This document shows positions 6,402-20,248 of a stretch of DNA of 64,000 nt, in pieces. Positions within the stretch are counted from its first letter, which is position 1. Each line of letters begins with the position of its first letter. Location: IMG/VR virus record IMGVR_UViG_3300029266_001112, positions 6,972 to 70,971 of that record; one strand, written 5' to 3'. Both the position numbers and the translations under genes were made by a program. The notes beneath the pieces were generated by a model. The model was not told the origin of the DNA, did not search any database, and was given only the letters and a program-made list of their open reading frames with translations. The stretch comes from a virus.

Positions 6402-9400
6402 TGGCGAATATTAAATTAAGGGTTTCCCCTGGTAAAGCATATGTTAATGGTTATAAGATACAAAAAAATCTTCCAACATTTTTATCTGTAAGCAAATCAA
6501 CTACATCAGAAACTATTACAAACGATACGATTGGCGCTGCATACGGGCATTATATTTTGGTATCAGTTGGTGGTCTTCAGAGTATTCCAAACATAACCAA
6601 TCTTGGTGTTGTTAATATCAAAAACGGTGTCGGACAGTCTGGCGTTCAAGTTGGTACTTGCAGAATTAGGGCAGTTGAGAAATATAGCGCATTGGTAGAT
6701 GCTGCTGGCGATGCCGTTGTTGCATATAAACTTTATATTTTTGATATTGTAATGAGTTCTGGTAAGTTTTTCTCTACTGATGCAAAAAGTATTGGTTTGA
6801 CAACAACAGATTTTGCTAACATATATCAAGAAAATTCTAGATCAATAATTCATGGCGCACATAACAAAGGTCTCATTTTCTCCACTGCCAATCCAAGGGC
6901 AAAGAATGTAACAAATCTTTCACTATATCAACAAAAAAGATTTTCGGCAACTCTTTCAGCAGGAGCGACATCATTAACATTTTCTTGTTCTGCTGGTGAA
7001 GTTTTTGTTCATCTTGATGATTGGATTGTTGCAAATGGCAACGGTACTATTCAAACCAATGGTGTAACTGCTGGAAGTCTTAATACGACATCAGCAACTG
7101 TCAACAGTCTAGTTGCACAAGATGTAGCATCAGACGAAACTTTTACAATTATTGCATACGTATATAAAGCAAGTGCAAATTTGGCATCAAAAACAAAACA
7201 AGTCGGTACAAGAAATTATACTGTTGCTTGGACACCAGGTGCTACTGACGTAGTTGTCGATTTAAATGAAGTTGATATTATATCTGTATCAGAAATTAGA
7301 TATGCTGACGCCACTGGAGACATCATTACTGATAAGTTTGTAGTCGATAATGGACAAAGAGATGCTTTCTATGAAACAGGAAAGTTGCGCTTAAAGAATG
7401 GCAACTCCTTAAATAATACCACCATTTGGGTAGTATTTACATATTTTGAGCATGGTCAAGGCGATTATTTTGCTCCGAATTCTTATGTTGGTGCTGGAGT
7501 TACTTATTCAAATGTTCCAACATATGTCATGGAAAACGGTTTAGAAATTGATTTGAAAGATGCTGTCGATTTGAGACCATCTAAAGGTCAAACAGGTAAT
7601 AACTTTTCACATTCATCTGCTAGAGTTCCACCAATCGTTAAACCAACATCTATTATGACAGGAGATATTGAATATTACCTTCCAAGATATGATAAATTGA
7701 TTATTCAACAATCTGGACAATTTAAGTATGTTGAAGGAACACCATCATTCGACCCTAAGTTTCCAGACGTACCTACAAATTCTATGGAAATATATCGCGT
7801 AAGACTAAACCCATATACTTTGAGTAATAAAGATTTATCGTTTAGTATGATCGAAAATAAAAGATATACTATGAGAGATATTGGAAAAATTGATAAGAGG
7901 GTGGATGATTTAGAAGAACAAGTAACACTTTCACTACTTGAGGTCGATACCAAGAATATTCAAGTATTTGATGAAAATGGTAATCCAAGAACTAAAACTG
8001 GTTTTATCGCAGATAATTTTTCAGATCAAAGTCACATAGATGTAAACAATCAAGAATATAGGGCATCAATTGACCCGCAAGAACAATTTGCAAGACCCAA
8101 ATACAGTGCTAATAATATTGGTTTGTTTTATGATGATGCACTTTCAACTGGAACCACAATTGTAGGCGATAGTGTTTATTTAGATTATGTTGATTCAGAT
8201 TATATGGAGCAAAGTCTAGCATCTGGCACAGAAAATGTCAACCCATTTATGATCATGGGATTTAGGGGTCATATTAAAATGTCTCCCGCAAGTGATGATT
8301 GGAAAGAAATTGAATACCTTGCTGATAATATAATTGATAATGGGTCAAGACTTAATACTGATGCAGCAGTCCTTTGGAACGAATGGGAATGGAATTGGGG
8401 CGGTTCAGACTTAAATGGTCTTGAAATTGGCGCTGAAATATCCCAAGCAAGAGTTACAAGTGAAGACCCATTTACTGATGTAAGTCAATTCACTACTCGT
8501 AGTGGTGCATTTGGTACTAGTCGTAGACGTTGGAATAGAACCACCACAGGCGTTAATAGAACTACAAGCACTGTTGTAAATAGGATTGTTGGCAGTAGCA
8601 CTATCAATGAAGTTGTTGGTGATAGACTTGTCCAATGGGCGTTCATCTCATTTATGAGATCAAAAATGGTTTTCTTCAAAGCATCTGGTGTTCAAGCGAA
8701 TACTGAAATGTTTGCATTTTTCGATGGTGTTTCAATTGCGGATTGGGTTAAACAAGAAAGTTTCTTTTCTTATAACTCGCATAAACAAACTGAGTATGGA
8801 AACACTCAACTCAATGCCACGGCACATCCAAATACTAAATCTAAATTATATAGTGATGGAAATGGTCAACTTGAAGGATCGTTCTTTATCCCAAATACTG
8901 ATGCCATCAGATTTAAAACTGGTACATTAGAATTTAAATTAACAGATATCACAAGTATAGACGATAGTAAAGCGATAACCACTGCTTCTAGCGTATTTAC
9001 TTCTACTGGCGTATTGGACACCCGACAAGAAGATGTTGAAAGTACTAGAATATTAGAAGTTGTCGGCACAAGTCTTGAAACAGTTAATAGGGAAGTCACT
9101 TCGGTAAATACTACAAGAGTTGATCCTCTTGCCCAATCCTTTACAATTCACGAAGAAACTGGGGTATTTGTTACCAAATTAACATTGTATTTCAAACAGA
9201 AAAGCACCACTGATCCAGTTTGGGTTCAAATAAGACCAATGGTAAATGGGTATCCATCTTCGGATGTCATTGTACCTAGTTCGCAAAAATTATTAGCATC
9301 TTCACAAGTCTCAGTAAGTGCAGATGCTACTGTTGGTACAGTATTTACATTTGAAGAACCAATTTACCTAAAGGGTAATCAAACAGATTATTGTGTAGTT

Positions 9401-10738
9401 TGTCTAACAAATAATACTGATTATTTACTCTACACGGCAAAAGTTGGTGAGTTTGTTTTAGGAACCACAGAAGCAAAAATCAATAGACAACCATTCTTAG
9501 GTTCGTTGTTTAAATCTCAAAATAGTACAACTTGGGAAGCAGCACAATGGGAAGATATGAAATTCAAGTTAGAAAGAGCATCCTTCTCCACAACTGGTGG
9601 TATTGCTACTCTTAAAAATGCTAATGTACCTTTGAAACTTTTAAAGTCTAATCCTATTACGCTCTTTGCAAAAGGCGCACCCATAACTGCTGTTGATAAG
9701 ACAACGGTTAAGGTAAATGCTCCTAATCATGGATTGGTTGTTTCTGATAGTGTTATTATACAAGGTGTCGTAAACGGGTTATATGGTACTGCTATCAATA
9801 ATTCTGGAACAGCACATACGGTTACAGAGGTTGATGCTAATAGTTTCGCTTTTGTATCTTCTGCTAGTGCAATAACAACAAAAGCAGCAACTGCATCAAA
9901 TGCGGTTCCTTTAAGTCCAGTTATAACTGGTGGAGTTGGTGTAACAATAACACAGCAATATGCTTATAATCTAGCATGGCCAAATATTGAAACATTATCT
10001 CCAATTGGATCAGCAATCAACTTCACACATTCTGGTATCAGTGGTAAATCTCTTGCTGGTGCAGAATCTCCATATGTACAATATTCAACACCAACGGCAT
10101 TTATACCAAAAACTAATAACTATTATGCCTCACCAAGATCGATTGCAAACACAACCAGAGAGGGTTCTATGGGTCATTCATCACTTCTTGTGTATGGCAA
10201 TATGAACACGACATCTAATTTTGTTTCCCCACAGATCGATATACAAAGGGCATCTGTTAATCTGATAGAAAACCTTATTGATAAACCCACACCCACAAGT
10301 GCTGGTGCTGCAAATCAAATCGTTCTTGATATTGCAACATCTGGATATGAAACGTACAAACCAGAAACTGATCCACTTAATGGTTCAGCAGGATCGAAGC
10401 ATATTACAAAATCTGTTCGGTTGTTATCAGCAGCAAATGGATTAAAAGTTTTTGCTGGTATCAATAGACCGTCTGTTTGTGGTGTTGATTTATACTACAA
10501 AGCAGAAATGGGTGATATTGAGTTTGATAGCGTTCCTTGGGTCTTGGCACCAGTAGATACTAAAATGCCAAGTGATGATGATGTTAGCACTTTCAGAGAA
10601 TATATCTATACTATAGGTGGTGATACTGGAACAATGCCAGACTTCACTAAATTTAAACTAAAAATAGTTATGACCTCAACAAATAGTTCTAAAGTACCCG
10701 CGATAAGAGATTTACGTGCAATAAGTTTAGGTGATTAA
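6401..10738 (+). CDS. Large baseplate/virion structural protein (DUF4815-like), C-terminal part
   Basis: Motifs VSPGKAYVNGY, DNGQRDAFY, YYLPRYDKL, NKRYTMRDIGKIDKRV, DPLAQSF, GSLFKSQNSTTW and PAIRDLRAISL; TAATG stop/start overlap with a GAGGA SD. Confidence 0.8.
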   Translation: MANIKLRVSPGKAYVNGYKIQKNLPTFLSVSKSTTSETITNDTIGAAYGHYILVSVGGLQSIPNITNLGVVNIKNGVGQSGVQVGTCRIRAVEKYSALVDAAGDAVVAYKLYIFDIVMSSGKFFSTDAKSIGLTTTDFANIYQENSRSIIHGAHNKGLIFSTANPRAKNVTNLSLYQQKRFSATLSAGATSLTFSCSAGEVFVHLDDWIVANGNGTIQTNGVTAGSLNTTSATVNSLVAQDVASDETFTIIAYVYKASANLASKTKQVGTRNYTVAWTPGATDVVVDLNEVDIISVSEIRYADATGDIITDKFVVDNGQRDAFYETGKLRLKNGNSLNNTTIWVVFTYFEHGQGDYFAPNSYVGAGVTYSNVPTYVMENGLEIDLKDAVDLRPSKGQTGNNFSHSSARVPPIVKPTSIMTGDIEYYLPRYDKLIIQQSGQFKYVEGTPSFDPKFPDVPTNSMEIYRVRLNPYTLSNKDLSFSMIENKRYTMRDIGKIDKRVDDLEEQVTLSLLEVDTKNIQVFDENGNPRTKTGFIADNFSDQSHIDVNNQEYRASIDPQEQFARPKYSANNIGLFYDDALSTGTTIVGDSVYLDYVDSDYMEQSLASGTENVNPFMIMGFRGHIKMSPASDDWKEIEYLADNIIDNGSRLNTDAAVLWNEWEWNWGGSDLNGLEIGAEISQARVTSEDPFTDVSQFTTRSGAFGTSRRRWNRTTTGVNRTTSTVVNRIVGSSTINEVVGDRLVQWAFISFMRSKMVFFKASGVQANTEMFAFFDGVSIADWVKQESFFSYNSHKQTEYGNTQLNATAHPNTKSKLYSDGNGQLEGSFFIPNTDAIRFKTGTLEFKLTDITSIDDSKAITTASSVFTSTGVLDTRQEDVESTRILEVVGTSLETVNREVTSVNTTRVDPLAQSFTIHEETGVFVTKLTLYFKQKSTTDPVWVQIRPMVNGYPSSDVIVPSSQKLLASSQVSVSADATVGTVFTFEEPIYLKGNQTDYCVVCLTNNTDYLLYTAKVGEFVLGTTEAKINRQPFLGSLFKSQNSTTWEAAQWEDMKFKLERASFSTTGGIATLKNANVPLKLLKSNPITLFAKGAPITAVDKTTVKVNAPNHGLVVSDSVIIQGVVNGLYGTAINNSGTAHTVTEVDANSFAFVSSASAITTKAATASNAVPLSPVITGGVGVTITQQYAYNLAWPNIETLSPIGSAINFTHSGISGKSLAGAESPYVQYSTPTAFIPKTNNYYASPRSIANTTREGSMGHSSLLVYGNMNTTSNFVSPQIDIQRASVNLIENLIDKPTPTSAGAANQIVLDIATSGYETYKPETDPLNGSAGSKHITKSVRLLSAANGLKVFAGINRPSVCGVDLYYKAEMGDIEFDSVPWVLAPVDTKMPSDDDVSTFREYIYTIGGDTGTMPDFTKFKLKIVMTSTNSSKVPAIRDLRAISLGD

Positions 10739-10949
10739 TATGCTATTTTCTAAAATCCAAGGTGAACAAAATTATGTCAAAGACCTAGAATCTGGTGCCA
10801 TAGTTAATAATGATATTACGGAAATTCAAAAGTCCAAGATGAGAAAACAAAAAATGCGAGAAGAAAAAGAAGAATTTCAAGTATTAAAATCAGAAGTAGC
10901 AGATATGAAAAGTTTGCTCGTAGAAATTTCCAGAAAGTTAGGTGACTAA
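10731..10949 (+). CDS. Small conserved phage protein with coiled-coil C-terminus
   Basis: VKDLESGAIVN motif and EFQVLKSEVADMKSLL; coupled to both neighbours; true start may be ATG 10740. Confidence 0.65.
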   Translation: MINMLFSKIQGEQNYVKDLESGAIVNNDITEIQKSKMRKQKMREEKEEFQVLKSEVADMKSLLVEISRKLGD

Positions 10950-12160
10950 TGGCAAGATTAGAAAATGTAGATTTAAGTAATTCAATAAATGCTTGGAGAC
11001 AGAAAACAAATCTCACTGCAACATATATCGGTGATTTGGACAATTTAAATACTTCTGATAGTGGGACTATTGTAGGAGCAATCAATTCAATCCAAAGTAA
11101 ATTTGCTGTTAATGGTGAAGTACAAGGATTGGCAAAAACTGCTTTGGCGTTATCCACTGGTGGTTCTGGAGCGCATTCGTCTTTATCATACGCAGATTCA
11201 GCAGGGGTTGGTGGTGGTCTCTTTACTTTCACATGCAATACCCTTACTCATACAGATATTCCTAATTTGGACGGTGGCAAGATCACAACTGGAACTATTG
11301 ATCCTGGTAGAATACCAGCAATAGATGCACTGAATATAACAACTGGTACGTTAGCGACTGCTAGGTTACCTTATTTTTCTGCGAATCAAACGACAGCAGG
11401 GCAATTTGACAGTGACCGCATACCATCTTTATCAACAAGTAAAATAACTAAAGGCGTTTTTCTTATTGGAAGAATACCAGATATTCCCTCTAGTAAAGTA
11501 ATAGCAGATGGAAGTACTGTCCCATTAACTGCAATGGACCCATCACTCGTAAGAAACAATGTTTCTACAACATACTCAGGTACGAGAGTCTATAACGGCA
11601 CCAGCACTTTTTATGATACTGTTACGGTTGGAACTAGTGCCAGTCCCGTAGTCACTACTTTTAATGGAAATATAACTCACACTGGTAATATTATTCCTGC
11701 TGGTGTAAGTAATTCATATACAATTGGTACAGCAACAGAAAAGTATCTGTCGGTTCATGCTACAACATTTTCTGGAAATGCCACATCTGCTAATTTTGCT
11801 GACCTCGCGGAAAAATATACTACAGATGAGGATTATCCAGTAGGCACTGTTATGATGGTAAACTACGGACCTGCTAGAGATGGTGAAACCACCAAATGCT
11901 CACCCTCTGGTATTCCAGTTGGAGTTATTTCAGCGGAACCAGCATTTCTTATGAATGCAGAAGCAGAAGGTCAAGCACTTGCCCTTAAAGGTAGGGTTCC
12001 TGTTAGAGTGTGTGGACAAGTTAGAAAAGGTGAAGCAGTTTATACTTGGAAAGATGGTTGTGCCAGTACTGAGTTCAATGGTGCCGAAATAGTTGGAATT
12101 GCTCTTGAAAATAGTGATATTGAAGATGAAAAAATGATTGAGTGTGTTCTTAAAGTTTAA
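10949..12160 (+). CDS. Tail fibre-like protein with C-terminal intramolecular-chaperone (peptidase G2-like) domain
   Basis: About 20-aa ITTGT...RIP repeats; C-terminal ADLAEKY..GVIS..PAFLMN..LALKGRVPVRV..VRKGE. Confidence 0.7.
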   Translation: MARLENVDLSNSINAWRQKTNLTATYIGDLDNLNTSDSGTIVGAINSIQSKFAVNGEVQGLAKTALALSTGGSGAHSSLSYADSAGVGGGLFTFTCNTLTHTDIPNLDGGKITTGTIDPGRIPAIDALNITTGTLATARLPYFSANQTTAGQFDSDRIPSLSTSKITKGVFLIGRIPDIPSSKVIADGSTVPLTAMDPSLVRNNVSTTYSGTRVYNGTSTFYDTVTVGTSASPVVTTFNGNITHTGNIIPAGVSNSYTIGTATEKYLSVHATTFSGNATSANFADLAEKYTTDEDYPVGTVMMVNYGPARDGETTKCSPSGIPVGVISAEPAFLMNAEAEGQALALKGRVPVRVCGQVRKGEAVYTWKDGCASTEFNGAEIVGIALENSDIEDEKMIECVLKV

Positions 12161-12168
12161 GTTATCTA

Positions 12169-12197
12169 TTGACAATTTGAAGTGTGTATTATATAAT
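12169..12197 (+). promoter_or_regulatory. Consensus sigma70 (host RNAP, early/middle type) promoter for the enzyme cassette
   Basis: TTGACA (12169-12174), 17-nt spacer, TATAAT (12192-12197); SD AGAGGA at 12211-12216 before ATG 12224. Confidence 0.88.
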
Positions 12198-12223
12198 GAT
12201 GTTAGTCATCAGAGGATTTAACT

Positions 12224-12724
12224 ATGTTTACCAAAAATCAGTTCTTGAAACTAATTTCAAGTGATCTTGCGTATGAACAAAATATGATCTATGCCATCGA
12301 TAAGCATGGTAATGAACATCGTATGGAAAATTTTGCAGATACCTTCGCAAACAAATCTGAAAACTCTATCAAAATTGAAAGAATGGAACATTTCAATAGC
12401 GAGATATTTTCATACTGCTTGGGTTTAGAAACTCAATATGACCATATTGGTCCTATAACATGTCATTCGTTTTATGCAGAAGCGGGCGCACATTCTTTCA
12501 AAATGCATTCTGATCCTGATAAGGTTATTATATATTGTTGTGAAGGTGTTAAAACAATGGCAATGGAAGGTCATACTATGGGTGGCAATCCATTATTCAC
12601 TTTGAAAAAAGGCGCAACTCTACATATTCCAGCAAATACCAGACATCAAGCATTTAATGAAAGTGAAGCACTCACGTTGAGTTTTGGGTTGGAAAAGTTT
12701 ATAGAGGATAAAATACAAACCTAA
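12224..12724 (+). CDS. JmjC/cupin-type Fe(II)/2OG-dependent oxygenase
   Basis: HxD motif (MHSDPDKV..EGVKT) and distal His in LHIPANTRHQA..ALTLSFG. Confidence 0.75.
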   Translation: MFTKNQFLKLISSDLAYEQNMIYAIDKHGNEHRMENFADTFANKSENSIKIERMEHFNSEIFSYCLGLETQYDHIGPITCHSFYAEAGAHSFKMHSDPDKVIIYCCEGVKTMAMEGHTMGGNPLFTLKKGATLHIPANTRHQAFNESEALTLSFGLEKFIEDKIQT

Positions 12725-13743
12725 TGTTTTGGTCAGTCTATCTTAAAACCACAGAAACTTGTCAATTAAACTGCAAGCACTGCTTCACATCTGGCAGTGC
12801 TGGTGCTAAAATTTATTGGAATACTACTAAAATAGTTGATTGGATACATAGATTTCGTGAAGAAAAACCAGCAAAAGGTGATGGAATACATTTAGAGTTT
12901 CATGGCGGCGAACCATTTTTAGTCCCAGTTGGTCAAATGCGAAAAGTTTACGATGCTTGTGATGGTCTTTGGGATAATATGAGTTGGGGCGCAACAACTA
13001 ATTTAGTATACAAACTAAAAGATCAACATAAAGAATTTATTAAGGGACCACTTCGAAATAGATTGGGTACTTCTTGGGATCGTAAAATAAGATTTGAAAA
13101 TCAAAAACAATATAACCTCTGGCACAAAAATGTTAAATCCCTCTTAGCGGATGGGGTAACCATACGTTTGTTTATTAGTCTTACGAAAGACACCCTAGCA
13201 AAAGACCCTATTGTATTACTGAGATGGTGTCGAAGATTGGGAGTTCAAGAGGTATCTTTAGAAAGATTGACTAACAACGGAAATGCAAGGCAAGCATCAG
13301 AAATATTTCCATCTAACAAAGAACTTGATGCCTACTTTTTGAAAATGCACCAGCAAATCGTGGAGTATGGAGCAAGAGATTGGTTTGACAACGATTTTAT
13401 GGAAAACGTCTACGCAAAGTTTGAAAAGACCCACACCACTTGTGGAACTTTTTGTAGAGATTGTGAAACAAAATTATTCACAATAAATGGTGATGGTACT
13501 ATCAGCGGATGCCCAAACTCAGCACCAGAATTTCAATTCGGAACTTTAGATGATTCTATAAAAACTCTTATAAATAGTCCTAGAAGAATACGAACTATTA
13601 TCGAAGAAAAAATGAGGAACCCTAATTGCCTTCAATGTCCTGTTGCAAAATTCTGTGGTGGTGATTGTCACCAATTGGGGTGGGAAGGCGATGTGTGTGG
13701 CGCACCTAAAAGTTTGATGATGGAATTAGCAAAGAATGTCTAG
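12724..13743 (+). CDS. Radical SAM/SPASM-domain enzyme (#1)
   Basis: CxxxCxxC motif CQLNCKHC and FHGGEP; C-terminal CRDC..INGDGTISGCP..CLQC..FCGGDC..C. Confidence 0.92.
   Translation: MFWSVYLKTTETCQLNCKHCFTSGSAGAKIYWNTTKIVDWIHRFREEKPAKGDGIHLEFHGGEPFLVPVGQMRKVYDACDGLWDNMSWGATTNLVYKLKDQHKEFIKGPLRNRLGTSWDRKIRFENQKQYNLWHKNVKSLLADGVTIRLFISLTKDTLAKDPIVLLRWCRRLGVQEVSLERLTNNGNARQASEIFPSNKELDAYFLKMHQQIVEYGARDWFDNDFMENVYAKFEKTHTTCGTFCRDCETKLFTINGDGTISGCPNSAPEFQFGTLDDSIKTLINSPRRIRTIIEEKMRNPNCLQCPVAKFCGGDCHQLGWEGDVCGAPKSLMMELAKNV
13569..13576 (+). promoter_or_regulatory. T4-type late promoter inside rSAM #1, upstream of the CHSN-tail gene
   Basis: Exact TATAAATA 177 nt before ATG 13753; the only copy I found inside the cassette before the one at its 3' edge. 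Confidence 0.6.
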
Positions 13744-13752
13744 GAGATAAAA

Positions 13753-14607
13753 ATGGCAATATCAGACCCTATTACAGAAAATCCTGTAATTACAAAATAT
13801 AAACAGTTTGTAACTGATAAGATTAATAGTGCTATCGTATTTGGTGATGATAACTTACCTGACCAATCAACTGCAAGTTTTTTTTCTGGGACCACAACTG
13901 GAATAACAACCACCCCAGATTTGACTGATGCTCCAATAACTGCTGCAAATATTTTTGCTGTGCTTTTGAAGGATGTTAATCAATACACCAGAGTTAGAAA
14001 GTTTACGGCAGCACGAACTGTACTAGATGCTTTTGGTAATCCACTGACAGCAGCAGTACCACTCAATAATGAACCCATATTAGCAACCAATGTTGCAGCA
14101 TCCACCAATGCACAACAAGAAAATCTATTTGCGTGTGAATGGGCGACTGCTTTGAAAACCATTGTCGCAGCAGGTAACACCACTTTAGACCTTTCCACAA
14201 CTACTGCATTTTTTACTAAATGGGGTACTTATGGTGTCGGTGGACAACCAGACACTCTTTCAGAAGCAACATTATCTGGAGTTTCTGCTGATGCCGCATG
14301 TGTTGCAGCAACTCAAAAGTATGGTATAGCATTGCGAGGTTCTGCTCAAATCGGAGTTCCTTTTACTGCGAATGGTGTTGGAATCCTAACTGCCAAACAT
14401 AGTTTTACTATTGATTCTGCTGATGTTGATCATTCGATGATTATCTCAGGAGATTTGATTAACGATGTAGATTTAGAATCGTTATTTAATAATCTTTATA
14501 ACGCATGGAAAACTGTTGCCTTAGATGCTACTGCAACTGGATATACTGAATCTGTATGTCACTCAAATTGCCATTCTAATTGTCATAATTCAAGGAATAG
14601 GAGATAG
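13753..14607 (+). CDS. Putative modification substrate: Ala/Thr-rich virion-like protein with C-terminal CHSNCHSNCHNSRNRR tail
   Basis: Strong SD (AGGAGA). Composition resembles the structural proteins, not the Lys-rich enzymes around it. Cys/His tetrapeptide repeat at 14557-14607. The substrate role is inferred. Confidence 0.7.
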   Translation: MAISDPITENPVITKYKQFVTDKINSAIVFGDDNLPDQSTASFFSGTTTGITTTPDLTDAPITAANIFAVLLKDVNQYTRVRKFTAARTVLDAFGNPLTAAVPLNNEPILATNVAASTNAQQENLFACEWATALKTIVAAGNTTLDLSTTTAFFTKWGTYGVGGQPDTLSEATLSGVSADAACVAATQKYGIALRGSAQIGVPFTANGVGILTAKHSFTIDSADVDHSMIISGDLINDVDLESLFNNLYNAWKTVALDATATGYTESVCHSNCHSNCHNSRNRR

Positions 14608-14614
14608 TTTTATT

Positions 14615-15268
14615 ATGAGTAACTATGTTACAGTGACAGCACCATTGGGAATTGACGATCTACAAAAATACTTTTCCGATAATGATATAAATTTTATCAT
14701 TGATTATGAGAACAGCGAACTGCAAGGCGAAAAACTTCTAGTTTATTTGAGTAATTTGGAATTACCGTGCGATATTAAAATTAAAGGGAAAGACTTAGAA
14801 AGTCTAGCAGAAATCTATCTTCAGTTCCCTCAAATTGTAAGTATTAAAGTTTTAGAAGAGTTTATTATTGAGGTTCTACTGGCAAGAAAAAAATTATCTT
14901 TAGAATATTTAAATTCTTATCAGGATTTTATTGACAATAATGAGGAAATGCTTGATACATGGATAAAAAAGTTAGACTCACTAACCCTTTACAATATGTA
15001 TATTATTCAAGATGATTCCATAACAGATTGGGTGAAAGGTCATAAAGAAGACGATACAGATGACATTAAAGGAATTAATTTTGTATCAGTATTGAAGCAT
15101 GAAGACTTTTATTATTACTACAACGGTTTAGATACAGAGAATTTGACTTATTATTCAAAATATTTCAACGAATATATGTTTAATGGAAAAGGTCTATTCG
15201 ATTACTGGTCATATCAAAAAAATCCACTTTTCTTATTGACTTGGGGAGTTGGTGCAGGAGAAGTTTAA
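14615..15268 (+). CDS. Hypothetical acidic protein in the rSAM cassette
   Basis: ATG 14615 follows SD AGGAGA (the 14525 start in the track overlaps the upstream gene); no recognisable motif. Confidence 0.7.
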   Translation: MSNYVTVTAPLGIDDLQKYFSDNDINFIIDYENSELQGEKLLVYLSNLELPCDIKIKGKDLESLAEIYLQFPQIVSIKVLEEFIIEVLLARKKLSLEYLNSYQDFIDNNEEMLDTWIKKLDSLTLYNMYIIQDDSITDWVKGHKEDDTDDIKGINFVSVLKHEDFYYYYNGLDTENLTYYSKYFNEYMFNGKGLFDYWSYQKNPLFLLTWGVGAGEV

Positions 15269-16309
15269 TTGGATTTAGTAGATTTCATTTTAAGAGATAA
15301 AAGAGATAAGCAGCAAGAATACACAATTCATTTGTTTGAGTTTTGTAATCTATCTTGCCCGTTTTGCTGGCAAGACCACGACAACATTGTGGGTATTGAT
15401 ACTGTATTGGACAAGTTGGAATCAATAGAAAAGTTCTTTCAAAAAGAGATGAGAAAACATGTAGTTTTAAACATCATGGGTGGTGAAATTTTTGCTGATG
15501 AAATTTTTGATGAAAAACTAAAAAATGATTATATTTCTCTTGCACAAGGCATAACAGACTTAGGGAAAAAATATAAGTTTGAAAGCATAGGGATTAATTG
15601 GGTCACTAACCTTGTGATTAGTAAAAGAGACTACGTGCGCGACCTGTTGAAGGCGTGTAGGGATATGGGATGCAACTCAAAACTGGTAACTTCATATGAT
15701 CCTAGAGGTAGATTCAATAAACCAAACTTGGAAATTTTCAAGGAAAATGTGTATAATTTCTGGGATGATCTCGAAGGAATTGGTGTTCTTTTAACCAAGT
15801 CTAATATTAAATATTGGTTGACTGATCCTAAAGATTTTATGCACGAATTATATCATAAGGGCGTAAAGGTTTATGCTGATTACTACATGCCTGATTGTCA
15901 AGCAGAAAGAAGTATGCCAACAGACAAAGAGCATTATGATATTTTCACACATTTTATAGATAACTATCCTAAGATTGATCCAATTCGTTCTTGGATAGAA
16001 AATGAGCGAAATGTTGTTTCGTGTAGATCATCTAAACTAGTTCTTGAGGATGGTACGATGTGTTTATGCGGAAATCTTGTTCAAGAACCAAGAGATAAAG
16101 CAATGTATAAAACTGATATTCAGAAGGCGAACAATAAACCTATTGAAAAAGCATTTATTGAAAAGTATAATTGTTCCACTTGTGAATATTTTCATAGATG
16201 TACTCTTGGATGTTTCATGGCACATGATTACAAATATGCGGAGGAAGTTTTTGATGAATGTGTTTATAAAATGACACATAGATATATTGAAAATAAAGGA
16301 CTTCGATGA
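15269..16309 (+). CDS. Radical SAM/SPASM-type enzyme (#2)
   Basis: CNLSCPFC and MGGE; C-terminal SCRSS..DGTMCLCG..CSTCEYFHRCTLGC..C; TTG start. Confidence 0.9.
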   Translation: MDLVDFILRDKRDKQQEYTIHLFEFCNLSCPFCWQDHDNIVGIDTVLDKLESIEKFFQKEMRKHVVLNIMGGEIFADEIFDEKLKNDYISLAQGITDLGKKYKFESIGINWVTNLVISKRDYVRDLLKACRDMGCNSKLVTSYDPRGRFNKPNLEIFKENVYNFWDDLEGIGVLLTKSNIKYWLTDPKDFMHELYHKGVKVYADYYMPDCQAERSMPTDKEHYDIFTHFIDNYPKIDPIRSWIENERNVVSCRSSKLVLEDGTMCLCGNLVQEPRDKAMYKTDIQKANNKPIEKAFIEKYNCSTCEYFHRCTLGCFMAHDYKYAEEVFDECVYKMTHRYIENKGLR

Positions 16310-16310
16310 A

Positions 16311-16961
16311 ATGTTTTATTATGCCAACTGTGATAATTCTCCAATAAGTCAAACACTTTTAAATAGATTTACATCAAGAACTAAACTTCTAACCAATCCG
16401 ATTAAAGATATTGACATTGAATATAATGTATGTTATACTGTATTCGATTATTTGGTTGATAAGGAATTACCACCTTGCATTCATTTTTTAGATAATTTTT
16501 TGAGTAGTGAGGTGTACGTGTTTAGTACTTCTTTGTCAAGTAATTTATTATCTAAAGTAGATAGTAAATCTATGGTAGAAGATTATATTACTCAATTCAC
16601 AGGATCACCTAAAACTGCAATTAATAATGATTATGAACTAGGGTGGGTTGGGATAGAAAAATCTAAAGATTGTACGATAATGTCTAATATCCAAATCAAT
16701 GGGATATATAGAAAAAGTCTGACCAGAAGACAAGAGGTTGACTTTTATAGAACTATGGTAAATTTTTGTAGAAATGAAATAAAGATTAGACCTCTTTATG
16801 CTCCTACTGCCAAGACATTAAAATCACAAATGAACAAAATGTCCAATCATCCAGATAGTGCCATAATGGAATCTCCTTATACTTCCAAAATTTTGAAAGG
16901 GTTTAAAAAGACTAAATTACAAATAGATGGCAGTGAATTGGAGTTTTATAAAAGTGATTAA
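16311..16961 (+). CDS. Hypothetical protein in the rSAM cassette
   Basis: Open frame with ATG 16311 after SD AAGGA; no recognisable motif. Confidence 0.6.
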   Translation: MFYYANCDNSPISQTLLNRFTSRTKLLTNPIKDIDIEYNVCYTVFDYLVDKELPPCIHFLDNFLSSEVYVFSTSLSSNLLSKVDSKSMVEDYITQFTGSPKTAINNDYELGWVGIEKSKDCTIMSNIQINGIYRKSLTRRQEVDFYRTMVNFCRNEIKIRPLYAPTAKTLKSQMNKMSNHPDSAIMESPYTSKILKGFKKTKLQIDGSELEFYKSD

Positions 16962-18585
16962 AATTGGATATATTAATCCTGCTGGAATTCCATCAAGGAC
17001 AGAATTTAATTATCATTGGATGCTTTTTAAATGTTTCTATGAAGATTTTGGAAAATATCCAAACGACTTTGAGTGGGTTGAACCTATATTCAAATGGAAT
17101 GAAGTGAGCATTCAAGACTGTCTTGATAATTTAAAAGATTGTTCTATTGTTTTTTTCACTAACTATGTGTGGAATTATAAGATCAATGAAAAAATACGAG
17201 AAGGACTTGATCCAAAGACTATAGTTGTTCTAGGTGGACCACAACAAGACCCAGATATAATAAAAGACTATGATTACGTGGCAGACCCCCTTGCTCCTGG
17301 TGAGGTTTTTGTTCAGTATTTCCTTGATATGTTCATGGAAAATAATATAGAAACTTCTAGAATTCCTTTTTATCTGGGAAGTTCTGTAAAAGCACCTTTA
17401 CCTTTTGGTCATACGAATGTGTATAGGAGATGTGAAAATTATTTCACTAAGCAGTATGAACACTTTATTAAAAATATAGACTTATATGAACGAATAACCT
17501 TAATATATGAAAGCACTAGAGGTTGTCCATTTAAATGCTCTTACTGCGAATGGGGTGGTGGTACAGGCACAAAAGTTTTGAAAAAACCGATGGATGTGAT
17601 CGAAGATGAGATGCTTTTTATTGGACAGTTCAAAGGTGTTCATATAGACTTGTGTGATGCCAATACTGGGATGTTCAAAGATCGTGATAGAGAAATGATG
17701 ATGCATATGGTAAAAAATGGTGTGCAAATAGGTGAAAATTTATCTGTACTAAAGACCTTAAAACTAGAACAGAAAAAGGAAATGCTTGACTTTATGATTG
17801 AGCATGATATTACTAGACAAGTTATAAGTATCAGTCTGCAATCCATTTCAGAAGAAGCAAGAAGAATAGCAAATAGAAGAGACCTCACTGAAGAAGAAAC
17901 TTACGAATTAGTAGACCATCTAACCAATAAGTGGAATAACTTTAAAGATAAAGAACTATGGTTAGATTTAGAATTAATCTTAGGTATGCCTGGTTCAACA
18001 CTTGAAGACTTCTATGAAGAGTTTAGAGTATACTATAGAATTGGATTGAACGTATGGGATGATAGTAGATATCCTTATATGGTTCTACCTGCAACTGAAG
18101 CAGCAAGCGTGGAATATAAAGAGAAGTATAAAATAAAAACTTCTAAAGTATTAACTCAATTTGATGGTAATTATAGTGGAAAATGGGATGATGTTGAAGT
18201 AAATCAAATATATGGAAACGTGACATATGAGTATGATACCATAGTTGAATGTTTTTCATACACATTTGAAGAATACTTAGAGATGTTTATGATGAATCTG
18301 TTCACTCCACACATAGGTCTAAGTTTTATAAATGAATACACTACCTATGAAAATGTGTCTGAGGTCTCAAAAGAATTATGGAATATACTCAACGATATAC
18401 CTATATTTTTTGTCTATAAAGAATTGATAAGAAATATATTCTCTGATAATGTTCCACATAGTATGGATAAATTTGATGTAGGTAGTTTTTCTGGAAAGGG
18501 CATTATTGACGAAATGAAAGATTTATTAGATACAAATGAAAAATTAATAAGGAGAAGACTAGATGAATTCTGTGGAAATTTATGA
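16927..18585 (+). CDS. B12-binding-domain radical SAM enzyme (class B methyltransferase-like)
   Basis: N-terminal FTNYVWN..IVVLGGPQ; ESTRGCPFKCSYCEWG, DANTG, SLQS and ELILGMPG. Start may be GTG 16954. Confidence 0.85.
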   Translation: MAVNWSFIKVIKIGYINPAGIPSRTEFNYHWMLFKCFYEDFGKYPNDFEWVEPIFKWNEVSIQDCLDNLKDCSIVFFTNYVWNYKINEKIREGLDPKTIVVLGGPQQDPDIIKDYDYVADPLAPGEVFVQYFLDMFMENNIETSRIPFYLGSSVKAPLPFGHTNVYRRCENYFTKQYEHFIKNIDLYERITLIYESTRGCPFKCSYCEWGGGTGTKVLKKPMDVIEDEMLFIGQFKGVHIDLCDANTGMFKDRDREMMMHMVKNGVQIGENLSVLKTLKLEQKKEMLDFMIEHDITRQVISISLQSISEEARRIANRRDLTEEETYELVDHLTNKWNNFKDKELWLDLELILGMPGSTLEDFYEEFRVYYRIGLNVWDDSRYPYMVLPATEAASVEYKEKYKIKTSKVLTQFDGNYSGKWDDVEVNQIYGNVTYEYDTIVECFSYTFEEYLEMFMMNLFTPHIGLSFINEYTTYENVSEVSKELWNILNDIPIFFVYKELIRNIFSDNVPHSMDKFDVGSFSGKGIIDEMKDLLDTNEKLIRRRLDEFCGNL

Positions 18586-19093
18586 CGATTTTTTAAATAA
18601 AGATGAATTAAACTATATAAAGAAAACTTTCTCTATGGATAATCCAGAGATTGATGCTCTACCAAGGTTTGATATGCAGAAAAACACGGCAACAAATATT
18701 AAAAATCTCATGAAGGGGTTTCCAAATTTAAACAAGGCAAAGACTATTGCACTATGTAAAGATTCGAGTATAAGCAAGGTTGCGATAGCACACTTAATTA
18801 ATATTGTCAAGTATGAAGAAGATAATAGTGAGAATATGATTTGGGAACCGCATCACGATGGCACGGAGTCTAAAATCATCACTTTGTTCTTTATAGATAT
18901 AGATAAGGATGGTTGGCAAGGTGGCGAGTTGGATATTTATAGTTCACTTGATATTTTTGAATATCCAAAAAACAAAACTAGAATAGAACCAAAACCAGGT
19001 AGATTGGTTGTTTTTAATAGTTCTATGATCCATGGCATTAAACCATATTTCGGTAAAACGCCAAGGATGACTGTAAGTGTGGGGTGGGAATAA
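18563..19093 (+). CDS. 2OG-Fe(II) oxygenase (prolyl-hydroxylase-like)
   Basis: Motifs HHD, GGEL, PKPGRLVVFNS..HGI and RMTVSVGW. Confidence 0.88.
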   Translation: MNSVEIYDDFLNKDELNYIKKTFSMDNPEIDALPRFDMQKNTATNIKNLMKGFPNLNKAKTIALCKDSSISKVAIAHLINIVKYEEDNSENMIWEPHHDGTESKIITLFFIDIDKDGWQGGELDIYSSLDIFEYPKNKTRIEPKPGRLVVFNSSMIHGIKPYFGKTPRMTVSVGWE

Positions 19094-19094
19094 A

Positions 19095-19649
19095 ATGAAT
19101 ATAGACAAAAATTCTGGAAGTTTCATCGAAAATAATCCTGATATGTTTATTCATATAAAGGACACTCTTCCAAAATTAAAATGGTTGCGCCTCAAGCGGA
19201 GTGATTCCAAAAAATCAGATAGATGGCAGAGTGTTGCTTGGAATTATTATTTTCACTCTATGAAAAAGAAAATGTTAGAGACCGCAGACTTACTTTGGGA
19301 AACTTATTTACCTTGGGAAACCGAAAAGAATTTAGATTATTACACTATGTGGAATGGTACAGATACTGGTTCGTGCGAATGGCATCATGATACTGAGGGT
19401 GGTAATCTACAGTTTAATTTGTATTTTACAGATTTAGACCCAAATGGTGGTGGTGAGATTATGTTTAGGAACATGGAACAAAATAAGAAAATTACTACCT
19501 TTCATTTACCTAAAAAGTATGATATAATTATGAGTAGTGTTGGTAATGACCTAAAATTTCAACATAGAGTTGAGCATACCAAAAATCCAAAACAAGAAAG
19601 AATAACCATGCTGTTCAGATTTAAGGTGAAGGAATCTCCATGGAAATGA
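19095..19649 (+). CDS. 2OG-Fe(II) oxygenase (paralog A)
   Basis: WHHD..LYFTD..GGEIMF..QHRV..RIT; ATG 19095. Confidence 0.85.
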   Translation: MNIDKNSGSFIENNPDMFIHIKDTLPKLKWLRLKRSDSKKSDRWQSVAWNYYFHSMKKKMLETADLLWETYLPWETEKNLDYYTMWNGTDTGSCEWHHDTEGGNLQFNLYFTDLDPNGGGEIMFRNMEQNKKITTFHLPKKYDIIMSSVGNDLKFQHRVEHTKNPKQERITMLFRFKVKESPWK

Positions 19650-20248
19650 GAGATAAAGGGTATCTCACTGAAAATAGACAAGATATGTTTATTCACATTG
19701 AAAATACCATTCCAAAACTAAAATGGTTAAATATGAATACGGATAGTAAAGATACTATTCCAAAAATGCCATGGGCAAAATCTAAAGACTGTAGGAATTA
19801 TAGCATTCCTTGGAATTATCATTTGAAGGGTATGCGAAAAAAAATAAAAAAAACTGCTGACCTGCTCTACGATACATATTTGTCTAAGTATGAAGACCCC
19901 ATGGATTACTTCGGAAATCAAAATGATAGACGGTTAATATATTCATATATTTGGAATGGCACTTCTTCTGGTTCGGATGTCTGGCACAACGATTTAATTG
20001 AAGGTGCGAATGTTTTCTTTTTACTATATTTTACAGATATGGAATTGGGGTCTGGTGGCGAAATTATGTTTAGGAACATGGAAGAAAATAAACGTGTAAC
20101 TTGTTTCCATTTACCTAAAAAATACGATCTTATATTAGGTAGTCAAGACTTAAAATTTCAGCACAGAGTTGAAGATTTTCGAAAACCTTCTATGCAAAGA
20201 ATTACTCTGAACTTCGGATTTAATATAAAGAACTCGCCGTGGACCTAA
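19640..20248 (+). CDS. 2OG-Fe(II) oxygenase (paralog B)
   Basis: WHND..LYFTD..GGEIMF..QHRV..RIT; clear tandem paralog of 19095-19649. Confidence 0.85.
   Translation: MEMRDKGYLTENRQDMFIHIENTIPKLKWLNMNTDSKDTIPKMPWAKSKDCRNYSIPWNYHLKGMRKKIKKTADLLYDTYLSKYEDPMDYFGNQNDRRLIYSYIWNGTSSGSDVWHNDLIEGANVFFLLYFTDMELGSGGEIMFRNMEENKRVTCFHLPKKYDLILGSQDLKFQHRVEDFRKPSMQRITLNFGFNIKNSPWT

Follow-up and report, generated by a model that had tools for sequence, protein, structure and literature searches.

That radical-SAM enzymes can mature whole proteins in cells was shown only recently, in reports on HXS (PMC13128918) and CrpA (PMC13692751). [quoted passage not shown] In the archaeon Methanococcus voltae, CrpC is reported to install ranthionine cross-links on the Cys-rich protein CrpA (PMC13692751). 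Radical-SAM cassettes have also been noted in the host-recognition clusters of pelagimyophages (PMC7029224) and in jumbo-phage genomes (PMC8066314, PMC11898562, PMC5468394), in each case without explanation. Our search of the literature found no description of the protein considered here, of its modification or of a function for the cassette that surrounds it.

The window, that is, the whole 64-kb stretch of viral DNA that was analysed, derives from a marine T4-like phage. Among its baseplate and tail-fibre genes lies one encoding a protein with a Cys-His-rich C-terminal tail of 16 residues, which we call the tail protein. The features of the locus are as follows.

10949..12160, + strand: fibre-like protein, 403 aa, matching tail-fibre PHROGs, three genes upstream of the tail protein
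12224..12724, + strand: JmjC-like cupin, 166 aa (Cupin_2 30 bits, cut-off 27.2; JmjC_2 24.3 bits, cut-off 22)
12724..13743, + strand: SPASM radical-SAM enzyme, 339 aa, directly upstream of the tail-protein gene
13569..13576, + strand: TATAAATA, an octamer resembling a T4-type late promoter, inside the radical-SAM gene and 184 nt before the start codon of the tail protein
13753..14607, + strand: tail-protein gene, 284 aa by ORF and translation, with the C-terminal end VCHSNCHSNCHNSRNRR
14557..14604, + strand: coding sequence of the 16-residue tail, CHSN-CHSN-CHNS-RNRR (stop codon 14605-14607)
14598..14603, + strand: AGGAGA, coincident with the last two Arg codons and resembling a Shine-Dalgarno sequence for the gene that follows (ATG at 14615)
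14615..15268, + strand: conserved partner c2, 217 aa (phrog_20767 at 2.9e-51)
15269..16309, + strand: second radical-SAM enzyme, 346 aa (phrog_1802 at 3.5e-40; Radical_SAM 23.5 bits, under the cut-off)
16927..18585, + strand: B12-binding-type radical-SAM enzyme, 552 aa (Radical_SAM 40.4 bits)
18563..20248, + strand: three small oxygenase-like genes, 176, 190 and 202 aa
20239..22202, + strand: two further radical-SAM genes, 344 and 310 aa (Radical_SAM 40.8 and 26.4 bits)

The initial annotation described the tail as three Cys-His units, followed by a basic end, in which the repeats use differing synonymous codons. Both the translation and a reading of the codons from TGT at 14557 (tgt cac tca aat / tgc cat tct aat / tgt cat aat tca / agg aat agg aga / tag) agree with this. 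Its description of the 268-residue body as rich in Ala, Thr and Gly was correct for Ala and Thr (13.8% each) and incorrect for Gly (6.3%). No Pfam domain was found in the tail protein, and none is common to the 146 family members scanned. The tail protein has no NCBIfam match, and a typical short member of the family, P0059, matches only MamG, at 23.5 bits. The profile of phrog_35144, a PHROG without annotated function, does match the tail protein (E 6.7e-4, residues 229-284 on positions 131-186 of 186), and 124 of 146 family members match it, the best at E 4.2e-10.

Conservation within the family is highest in the tail. The strict C-terminal motif CHxxCHxxCHxxRxRR is found in 142 of 157 relatives, and three C[H/Y]xx units fall within the last 30 residues in 153 of the 157. 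The bodies, meanwhile, are hypervariable, with a mean column identity of only 8%. Across 66 distinct DNA tails, TGT and TGC are mixed at each Cys position, as are CAT and CAC at each His position, and the tail Arg residues are encoded by AGR as well as CGN. It follows that selection on the tail acts at the protein level. The initial annotation had named a failure of the tail to be conserved in homologues as a refutation, and the opposite is seen; it had also read protein-level selection from the codons of this one tail. The AGGAGA over the last two Arg codons may additionally serve the next gene as a Shine-Dalgarno sequence; the Arg codons in the family tails are mostly AGA or AGG, and the next start lies no more than 9 nt from the stop in 44 of the 66 distinct tails. 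Since CGN codons occur too, conservation of a ribosome-binding site in the DNA cannot alone explain the Arg residues, and that reading was rejected.

Two places past His, Ser occurs in 115, 101 and 123 of the 142 tails (units 1, 2 and 3, respectively) and Asn in 10-36 of them. The last unit has Gly, Ser or Asn as its third residue, with Ala in two tails and Pro in none of the 142, and Asp occupies any one x-position in at most four. Ahead of the first Cys stands V, I or T, the last residue of a beta strand in the structure model described below; no conserved cleavage motif was seen before the tail among family members. The pattern CH..CH occurs once across the six frames of the window. Elsewhere in a set of 1596 ORFs, drawn from the first 30 kb of the window and 80 related loci, it was found only in two tail-variant paralogues of locus L047 and in one doubtful N-terminal ORF in L077. 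A reading of the motif as a c-type haem CXXXCH site was dropped, since it relied on motif resemblance alone and no haem-attachment machinery lies nearby.

The linkage of the tail gene to radical-SAM genes is equally consistent. Proteins with a CxxxCxxC motif, one to seven of them, are encoded within eight genes of the tail gene in 78 of 78 tail-bearing sources, so that homologues without radical-SAM neighbours, which the initial annotation had also named as a refutation, are absent from this set. The nearest such protein is at position -1 in 60 of the 78 and at -2 in seven. When proteins are grouped by blastp clusters, the same SPASM radical-SAM family is found at -1 in 65 of 76 sources and the JmjC-like cupin at -2 in 57 of 71; a fibre-like gene is at -3 in 43 of 71, c2 at +1 in 67 of 77 and a further conserved protein, c5, at +2 in 51 of 75. 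The cassette is always preceded by a fibre gene and a gene for a VrlC-like giant protein. Two sources are arranged differently: in L070 the nearest CxxxCxxC protein lies three genes downstream of the tail gene, and in L080 two tail genes directly follow the fibre gene, with the radical-SAM-like c13 genes starting one gene further on.

The arrangement is also present in cultured jumbo phages. In Atu_ph07, RSL2, pPa_SNUABM_DT01 and Phosso, which represent all four of the lineages examined, an ORF ending in the tail directly follows a radical-SAM homologue. The tail-protein homologue is gp170 in the Agrobacterium phage Atu_ph07 and PA10_00065 in the Pseudomonas phage pPa_SNUABM_DT01. Particle mass spectrometry of Atu_ph07 and of RP31 has been published. 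Neither tblastn of the tail protein and P0059 against 50,697 cultured-phage records nor megablast of window positions 12000-20000 against cultured-phage records gave a match. The cultured carriers were found only through their radical-SAM neighbour, and the blank searches with the tail protein therefore reflect a problem of sensitivity and not absence. A pattern scan of 185,579 species genomes yielded at least two confirmed contigs among the matches listed, both in metagenome-assembled genomes; within the order to which one of these belongs, the match was confined to that genome among 101.

The directly upstream enzyme is a full SPASM protein. It has CxxxCxxC at residues 13-20 (C13, C17 and C20) and eight further invariant Cys residues, and the SPASM motif C247-x10-G258-x4-C263 ... 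C302-x2-C305-x5-C311-x3-C315 ... C325 is invariant in 51 sequences, over which mean column identity is 64%. It scores 34.8 bits against the SPASM model TIGR04085 (cut-off 27), placing it in the SPASM superfamily, and matches phrog_1802 at 4.7e-59; against Pfam Radical_SAM it reaches 17.3 bits, under the cut-off of 29.5. Its best full-length NCBIfam matches, which are weak, are to TIGR04083, DynA, anSME and PapB, all maturases that modify peptides or proteins. Searched against PDB sequences, the profile of its family is nearest to anSME, CteB (8.8e-08) and ChlB (1.2e-05), again weakly, and phmmer with the single sequence found no match there. RiPP-recognition domains usually sit in an N-terminal extension of such enzymes; this one has no such extension, its cluster motif beginning at residue 13. 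The curated cut-offs of the named maturase families were all missed by a wide margin.

In total, the window cassette holds five radical-SAM enzymes and about four oxygenases, in a genomic context of baseplate wedge and fibre genes, with the fibre-like gene marking the start of the host-recognition region. The JmjC-like cupin is probably an Fe(II) oxygenase; its HxD...H triad (H95, D97 and H141) is invariant in 62 of 62 homologues. The 344-aa radical-SAM protein at 20239-21273 matches phrog_1802 at 1.8e-53, and it and the 310-aa protein beside it have weak matches to DynA, anSME and HxsC. The B12-type enzyme, with homologues in 28 of 78 sources, resembles the KedN5 family of B12 radical-SAM C-methyltransferases (2.4e-26, far under the cut-off). 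Among the small oxygenase-like proteins, the 176-aa one matches 2OG-FeII_Oxy_3 at 33.9 bits and the 190-aa one at 20.2 bits, under the cut-off, while the 202-aa one has no Pfam match and shares a blastp cluster with the 190-aa protein. The c2 partner matched no Pfam or NCBIfam family, representatives of c2, c5 and c13 had no NCBIfam match, and an ESM Atlas search with the +1 partner gave nothing meaningful (best 0.91, to an unrelated T4 gp59 cluster). None of the other conserved cassette proteins has a Cys-rich conserved terminus or a conserved repeat motif. No peptidase or exporter family was found among the scanned neighbour proteins, apart from the fibre's own self-cleavage domain: a representative of the fibre family matches Peptidase_G2/IMC at 5.4e-05 (23.1 bits, under the cut-off of 25).

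AlphaFold2 with a deep alignment predicted a confident alpha/beta body for the tail protein (pLDDT 90.2, pTM 0.87). The body is mostly above pLDDT 90 and the last two ten-residue blocks, which contain the tail, are at 53-54, so the folded body with a flexible tip that the initial annotation proposed fits the model. A first structure model, based on 13 sequences, was poor (pLDDT 65.7) and was set aside. The layout comprises a conserved N-terminal helix, a helical hairpin inserted at about residues 100-200, a C-terminal alpha/beta part and then the tail. The hairpin is special to the tail protein's own clade, and short relatives of about 190 aa match only over residues ~1-100 and 200-284. Fold searches were run with the full model. 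Foldseek against the PDB gave no match at E ≤ 0.001 (best 0.41); VIA-align against 48,161 chains gave a best Z of 5.3, covering residues 111-197 only, that is, the helical hairpin; and a search of BFVD returned only uncharacterised family members. Prediction of a complex between the upstream enzyme and residues 200-284 of the tail protein scored 0.01 in both runs, a value that, lacking controls, counts neither for nor against an interaction.

The late-promoter-like octamer is embedded in the gene of the upstream enzyme. A late-promoter octamer is present no more than 300 nt upstream in 49 of 75 sources, against a background of 0.04 per 300 nt, and in 30 of the 31 sources whose enzyme carries the (L/V/I)INS motif it is written as xxT ATA AAT AGY. 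Judged from sequence, the promoter motif is selected at the nucleotide level within the enzyme's codons. In the window as a whole, TATAAATA occurs 12 times against a shuffle mean of 9.4, a count reached by 28 of 100 shuffles and thus not above chance; since the total is no higher than in shuffles, only the placement and the codon-level conservation are meaningful. Contigs from RNA libraries, in two runs of one study, contain pieces of the tail-protein gene at 99% identity or more, which is weak support for its expression given that DNA carry-over is possible. Contigs from RNA runs X19 and X20, a small share, cover the region of the cupin gene only, and stretches without RNA contig cover are uninformative.

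Our best reading, to which we assign a probability of roughly 0.55, is that the gene encodes a host-recognition-module protein, made late in infection, with a tail on which the adjacent radical-SAM and oxygenase enzymes act; we infer the modification itself, its chemistry and the location of the protein in the virion. The tail, (Cys-His-x-Ser/Asn)x3-Arg-x-Arg-Arg, would be the dedicated substrate of the directly upstream SPASM enzyme, which is the most likely of the enzymes to act on it, with the JmjC-like cupin and the cassette's remaining radical-SAM and 2OG enzymes as probable further participants. Hydrogen abstraction by the enzymes would lead to cross-linking or oxidation of the tail, with Cys thioethers, His-to-Ser/Asn carbon-carbon links and Cys oxidation as candidate products, perhaps followed by hydroxylation or methylation. 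The modified tail would remain attached to the body, and the matured protein would do its work in the host-recognition apparatus of baseplate and tail fibres, or on that apparatus.

We favour this reading because the tail is near-invariant, with codons under protein-level selection, while the body diverges; because a conserved SPASM enzyme and an invariant motif adjoin, in cultured phages too; because the best, if weak, matches of that enzyme are peptide and protein maturases; and because the cassette offers no rival Cys-rich terminus and CH..CH is unique to the family. The tail is predicted to be flexible and to protrude from a confident fold, and should therefore be reachable by an enzyme. 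Furthermore, SPASM radical-SAM enzymes do modify whole proteins, as the available reports describe for CrpC on CrpA (PMC13692751) and for HxsB and HxsC on HxsA (PMC13128918). Late expression together with host-recognition genes is suggested by the promoter motif upstream and the context of baseplate wedge and fibre genes. Counting against the substrate reading is the non-adjacent enzyme in a few sources (L070 and L080). The missing N-terminal extension and the missed maturase cut-offs, as they appear from the sequence comparisons, also weigh against it. Radical-SAM enzymes are oxygen-sensitive, and their pairing with O2-dependent oxygenases in phages whose hosts are probably aerobic and marine is a further count against.

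The main rival, which we consider unlikely, is that the unmodified tail is a metal-binding tag for Zn, Fe, Cu, Ni or an Fe-S cluster, either providing a structural site upon fibre or baseplate assembly or supplying the many iron enzymes encoded alongside, as a metallochaperone or electron carrier. With three Cys and three His spaced i/i+4, a flexible C-terminus of this kind would bind metals unaided by any enzyme, which also counts against the main reading. Metallochaperones such as SlyD and HypB typically carry flexible tails rich in His and Cys, and in T4 the fibre tips bind metal ions through His motifs. Iron enzymes are abundant in the cassette (five radical-SAM enzymes, the HxD...H cupin and the 2OG oxygenases), and the gene linkage suits an enzyme helper as well as a substrate. 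However, a metal site seldom needs an invariant Arg-x-Arg-Arg end or a Ser/Asn every four residues, the partner in the tight pairing is a single, very conserved SPASM enzyme and not iron enzymes generally, and an enzyme chaperone would have no need of a separate late promoter lodged in the enzyme's coding sequence.

It is less probable still that the targets of the enzymes are other proteins of the virion (the fibre, the VrlC-like protein, c2 or c5), the tailed protein being an accessory subunit, for example a scaffold or pseudo-substrate that docks into the radical-SAM enzyme and regulates or targets it. The enzymes do outnumber the evident needs of a 16-residue tail, which counts against the main reading as well, and what they truly act on could be fibres or the VrlC-like protein; c2 and c5 travel with the tail gene, at the frequencies given above, the cassette always comes after fibre and VrlC-like genes, and HxsD, described as binding HxsC, offers a parallel in HXS (PMC13128918). 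Against this, no other cassette protein carries a conserved Cys-rich or repeat motif, the small polar residues between the invariant Cys, His and Arg resemble a core peptide and not a docking helix, and so variable a body would be unusual for an enzyme subunit. We regard as very improbable a true RiPP precursor, in which the body would serve as an outsized leader and the modified 16 residues would be cut off as a free peptide such as a toxin, signal or metal chelator, even though the architecture is like that of leader-core precursors with SPASM maturases and the N-terminal helix is conserved, as leaders are. No cleavage motif is conserved, the V, I or T before the first Cys ends a beta strand, the scanned neighbours include no peptidase or exporter apart from the fibre self-cleavage domain, and the body is a confidently folded domain of 170-270 aa encoded in a structural late region. 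The term 'leader' in the initial annotation is thus doubtful.

Returning to the tail as an enzyme substrate, we put forward tentatively, as something possible rather than probable, a wider role for radical-SAM chemistry in virus-particle maturation, by which the tail would be made into a cross-linked, basic and possibly metal-holding tip needed for adsorption or genome delivery, in phages from marine T4-like to soil jumbo types. If true for a phage host-recognition protein, this would add a new step to virion assembly, give a reason for oxygen-sensitive Fe-S enzymes in abundant marine phages, account for the unexplained radical-SAM cassettes of pelagimyophage host-recognition clusters and jumbo-phage genomes, and provide chemists with a compact, invariant 16-residue substrate plus its enzymes.

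By curated cut-offs, the tail protein and its cassette are outside the HXS, anSME, PapB and triceptide families, and each of these shares some features with them. The sulfatase motif of anSME substrates is C/S-x-P/A-x-R, and the last unit of the tail, C-H-x-S-R, has the same Cys-Arg spacing, but its position 3 is not Pro and is rarely Ala. The enzymes themselves are alike in size and layout: anSME (TIGR03942; PDB 4K36-4K39) has 370 aa against 339 for the phage enzyme, both have CxxxCxxC at the extreme N-terminus, a full SPASM domain and no leader-binding domain, their SPASM parts align, and anSME acts on a protein. The score of the phage enzyme against TIGR03942 is 42.5 bits (cut-off 349.45). 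Substrates of anSME are sulfatases with one motif, whereas the tail protein has no sulfatase domain and three invariant units.

PapB substrates use Asp or Glu acceptors, which are absent from the window tail. PapB and CteB (NF047865; PDB 5WGG), maturases of ranthipeptides and sactipeptides, are SPASM radical-SAM enzymes that act on repeated Cys-x-x-x units, and the upstream enzyme matches NF047865 at 1.8e-10 over residues 4-317 on 4-318 of 330 (40.6 bits, cut-off 340). Their product is a released peptide, unlike the proposed phage product. The aromatic-x-polar His-x-Ser/Asn triplets of the tail fit the substrate pattern of the triceptide enzymes, which make three-residue cyclophanes (XyeB, GrrM, FxsB, YhhB, AmcB and ChlB), but its invariant Cys in each unit has no role in triceptides. 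Matches to triceptide maturases span mainly the generic cluster-binding N-terminus: the upstream enzyme scores 15.6 bits for XyeB (cut-off 450), 29.9 for YhhB (445), 19.3 for AmcB (425) and 17.9 for FxsB (370), and the fourth radical-SAM enzyme 26.7 for GrrM (310).

The archaeal CrpA/CrpC pair comprises a SPASM radical-SAM enzyme with three [4Fe-4S] clusters and, next to it, a protein-sized substrate whose Cys residues it modifies, an arrangement like the one proposed here. An RRE is predicted in CrpC, while the phage enzyme begins with its cluster motif, and CrpA is unrelated to the phage tail protein (PMC13692751). Of the HXS models in NCBIfam, none is matched by the tail protein or P0059; the upstream enzyme reaches 32.6 bits for HxsB (cut-off 370) and the radical-SAM enzyme at 20239-21273 reaches 33.2 for HxsC (cut-off 267.9). 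As for an HxsD-like partner, the +1 protein, like the c2, c5 and c13 representatives, matches no NCBIfam model. HXS is a bacterial defence and the tail protein is phage-encoded; HxsA is described as having a peptidoglycan-binding domain and as being processed and exported, whereas the tail protein has no Pfam domain. The HxsA modification maps to an S-H-R-S-S unit (PMC13128918), while the phage units begin with an invariant Cys and have a period of four, and the triplets of the window tail are H-S-N, H-S-N and H-N-S, so that H-x-S occurs in one of three units. HxsA is described as a whole protein, not a short peptide, with tandem His-x-Ser units rich in basic residues and matured by adjoining SPASM-type radical-SAM enzymes, and the tail protein may be comparable. 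A bolder variant of our reading would make the matured tail the phage-side counterpart of the HxsA effector, acting on the passage of DNA through the periplasm.

The ORF at 13753-14607 on the + strand encodes a tail protein of 284 residues whose C-terminal end reads ...TESVCHSNCHSNCHNSRNRR, with the first codon of the 16-residue tail at 14557. The initial annotation had described an Ala/Thr/Gly-rich body followed by three Cys-His units with differing synonymous codons. Reading the ORF from the window bears out the units and their codons, as well as the abundance of Ala and Thr in the body (13.8% each), but not that of Gly (6.3%). In a six-frame reading of the 64-kb window, the C-H-x-x-C-H pattern occurs at a single site, this tail.

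A word-indexed search recovered 12 relatives between 258 and 289 aa and a shorter one (188 aa), each with the tail; they share 34-68% identity, and C269, H270, C273, H274, C277, H278, R281, R283 and R284 are invariant. phmmer, run exhaustively against 1.84 billion cluster representatives, gave 147 proteins at E <= 0.001, and pooling the two results yielded 157 relatives with a median length of 195 aa. The strict motif CHxxCHxxCHxxRxRR forms the C-terminal end of 142 of these, and three C[H/Y]xx units lie within the last 30 residues of 153, so that the tail is conserved in homologues, a point on which the initial annotation had allowed its reading to fail. Within the 142 strict tails, Ser or Asn stands at Cys+3 in 140, 137 and 133 for units 1, 2 and 3, respectively, and Val, Ile or Thr precedes the first Cys in 130. 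The mean column identity over a 146-sequence alignment of the family is just 8%, and all invariant and near-invariant columns belong to the tail, Pro36 excepted. Among 66 distinct DNA tails, both Cys codons and both His codons are present at every such position and Arg is written with both AGR and CGN codons; the constraint therefore acts on the protein, as had been proposed from the window.

No Pfam family is common to the 146 members, 124 of which match phrog_35144, a group without known function. Judged by the phmmer alignments, in which the short relatives match solely residues ∼1-100 and ∼200-284, the window protein is a long form. Some related loci depart from the usual pattern: two tandem paralogues in L047 (8848-10204) have a broken third unit (CHSSCHSNVTCYNSRGRR), L080 (1624-2402) carries a tandem pair of short paralogues (131 and 127 aa) immediately behind the fibre gene, and the proteins at 9302-10075 in L069 and L075 have four Cys-His units.

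The tail protein was modelled by AlphaFold2 with a deep alignment (mean pLDDT 90.2, pTM 0.87). In it, a helical hairpin (helices 114-140, 148-157 and 169-195) is inserted into an alpha/beta core (helices 9-26, 64-78 and 238-256; strands 81-91, 204-212 and 262-269). The first Cys of the tail closes the last strand and the remaining tail residues stick out, with pLDDT dropping to 54 and 53 in the final two 10-residue blocks. With the whole model as query, Foldseek gave no match in the PDB at E <= 0.001, the BFVD matches were uncharacterised phage relatives only (the Atu_ph07 protein among them), and the best VIA-align Z over 48,161 chains was 5.3, confined to the hairpin. As the query was the whole model, the missing matches do not show that the predicted fold is new.

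All genes of the region lie on the + strand. T4-type baseplate wedge genes are followed by those listed here, which lead into the cassette of radical-SAM, cupin, oxygenase and partner genes.

Genes around the tail-protein gene (window coordinates, strand, product, basis)
5448-10738, +, VrlC-like giant baseplate protein in two abutting ORFs (317 + 1445 aa); phrog_358, profile of 2056 positions
10731-10949, +, 72-aa ORF; ORF call
10949-12160, +, fibre-like protein; three genes upstream of the tail-protein gene
12224-12724, +, JmjC-like cupin; profile match
12724-13743, +, radical-SAM enzyme with full SPASM domain (the -1 enzyme); profile match
13753-14607, +, tail protein; ORF translation
14615-15268, +, conserved unknown directly after the tail protein; neighbour gene

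Further downstream come a second radical-SAM gene, an unknown, a B12-type radical-SAM gene, three small oxygenase-like genes, two radical-SAM genes and further fibre genes. The two-ORF split of the VrlC-like gene is repeated in the closest relatives (L001-L006), and the fibre region includes a single ORF of 5167 aa (27088-42591). This layout agrees with the 'host recognition cluster' that PMC7029224 places downstream of VrlC in pelagimyophages; the passages of that paper on the cluster mention radical-SAM cassettes and assign them no function. The source record is a viral contig of 70,971 bases, estimated to be 34% complete. DNA nearly identical to window 12200-16400 was found, at half or more of the sampled words, in 14 runs dated 2014 to 2025, 13 labelled marine metagenome and one plain metagenome; three of them are possibly the source runs themselves.

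For the gene neighbourhood across phages, ORFs were called in 81 sources (80 loci from an IMG/VR scan plus the initial 30 kb of the window), and their neighbours were clustered by blastp. A tail-bearing ORF is present in 78; L047 has two variant tails, and none was called in L008 and L030. Homologues lacking radical-SAM neighbours, which the initial annotation had counted as evidence against its reading, were not seen: all 78 tail-bearing sources have between one and seven CxxxCxxC proteins (>150 aa) within eight genes of the tail gene. The nearest of these occupies position -1 in 60 sources and -2 in seven, and in the other 11 it is downstream (+2 to +4); of the eight sources where it lies at +3 or +4, six have no more than one ORF called ahead of the tail gene. 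The SPASM radical-SAM family occupies -1 in 65 of the 76 sources that have a gene at that position, and the cupin, whose H95, D97 and H141 are kept in 62/62 homologues, lies at -2 in 57 of 71. Two conserved clusters without assigned function follow the tail gene, c2 at +1 (67/77) and c5 at +2 (51/75). At -3, 43 of 71 sources have a fibre with a self-cleavage domain, of the family to which the window's fibre-like gene (10949-12160) belongs; the domain is assigned through a family representative (L009, 4410-5741) that scores 23.1 bits for Peptidase_G2/IMC, just under the cut-off of 25. This fibre gene immediately precedes the tail-protein gene in L070 and L080.

The pairing extends to cultured phages. 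A tblastn search with the -1 enzyme returned 15 records, duplicate deposits among them, from Agrobacterium phage Atu_ph07, Sinorhizobium phage Phosso, Pseudomonas phage pPa_SNUABM_DT01 and the Ralstonia/Burkholderia RSL2/RSF1/FLC group. In all four lineages opened, the ORF directly 3' of the enzyme gene ends with the same Cys-His tail (Atu_ph07 gp170, RSL2 ORF068, PA10_00065 and Phosso XYS97446). The cupin, radical-SAM and 2OG genes appear as annotations only in the gene descriptions of the genome papers (PMC8066314, PMC11898562, PMC5468394), and the words 'radical SAM' are absent from a study comparing 224 jumbo phages (PMC7824862). Among the matches listed in a pattern scan of cellular genomes, at least two contigs matched, both metagenome-assembled. 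One, a Rickettsiales-labelled contig of 32.5 kb (L085/L088) binned with a 0.9-Mb bacterial genome, encodes the N-terminal part of a relative of the tail protein as well as the -1 enzyme (E 1.3e-184; one TAA stop within the match); it is either phage DNA that was binned together with its host or a product of misbinning, and so at best hints at the host. In the order of the other, only one of 101 genomes had a match.

The -1 enzyme itself is highly conserved, with a mean column identity of 64% over 51 sequences, in which the SAM-cluster motif and eight further Cys are invariant. It passes the SPASM domain cut-off (34.8 vs 27 bits), and it has weak full-length matches to peptide- or protein-modifying maturases, namely TIGR04083 (44.9), DynA (44.4), anSME (42.5) and PapB (40.6 bits), each far under cut-offs of 300-450. 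Against solved structures, its profile matched 8VPO, anSME, CteB and ChlB (E 9e-10 to 1e-5). The cluster motif begins at residue 13, which gives a compact layout that we take to be that of anSME. By these scores the -1 enzyme is a SPASM maturase outside any named subfamily; the other radical-SAM genes of the cassette have similarly weak maturase matches.

An exact TATAAATA, which we take to be the T4 late-promoter consensus, lies at 13569-13576 within the -1 enzyme gene, 184 nt ahead of the tail-protein ATG. The octamer is not enriched across the window (12 found vs 9.4 expected), but 49 of 75 sources have one in the 300 nt ahead of the tail gene, mostly 176-203 nt away, against a background of 0.04 per 300 nt. 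It lies in codons that specify a conserved (L/V/I)-I-N-S motif (L-I-N-S in the window), and 30 of the 31 sources with this motif use xxT ATA AAT AGY, a fixed codon choice that argues for selection at the DNA level. We read the octamer as a putative late promoter of the tail protein's own. The last two Arg codons, AGG AGA (14598-14617 region), stand 12 nt ahead of the next gene's ATG and may be Shine-Dalgarno-like for it; purine-rich R-G-R-R codons often lie just ahead of the next start in the family. Metatranscriptome contigs at 13711-14024, 14020-14170, 14177-14327, 14323-14472 and 14444-14594 cover pieces of the tail gene at >=99% identity; they come from two runs of one study whose libraries may contain DNA, and give no RNA starts or levels. 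Short contigs of cassette genes (window 12200-16400) are also present in these runs.

Taken from sequence and gene order, the tail is most likely a substrate of the -1 enzyme, and further cassette enzymes probably act on it too. The sole invariant peptide of a hypervariable protein adjoins an almost invariant enzyme, the SPASM class modifies Cys and aromatic residues, and those next to them, in ribosomal peptides and proteins, and the pairing is kept from marine T4-like to soil jumbo phages. The main alternative, which we consider unlikely, is that the tail is a metal tag or chaperone: a Cys3-His3 tail would bind metal on its own, and iron enzymes abound in the cassette. It is more doubtful that the enzymes modify the fibres or the partners c2 and c5 while the tailed protein has an accessory role; the other conserved cassette proteins have no Cys-rich or repeat terminus. 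Release of the tail as a free peptide is very improbable, as no cleavage motif was found and there is no peptidase or exporter among the neighbours scanned.

If the tail is indeed modified by the cassette, several chemistries are candidates. The three Cys could form thioethers, His could be joined to Ser/Asn in cyclophanes, the last Cys, whose C-x-x-x-R spacing resembles that of the sulfatase motif, could be oxidised, and the cupin could hydroxylate His, Asn or Arg. A tail this invariant speaks for a product whose role is fixed, for instance a rigid and basic tip that may hold metal, and against a toxin that diversifies.

In our literature search, no paper dealt with the tail protein or with what the cassette does. 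That radical-SAM enzymes can mature a ribosomal protein is already known: CrpC, an enzyme of the SPASM class, is described as acting on the whole protein CrpA (PMC13692751), and HxsB/HxsC as acting on HxsA, an effector with His-x-Ser repeats in which a change of +8 Da was mapped to an S-H-R-S-S unit (PMC13128918). A phage structural module that applies such maturation to a (Cys-His-x-Ser/Asn)3-RxRR substrate would be a new variant if the modification is real.
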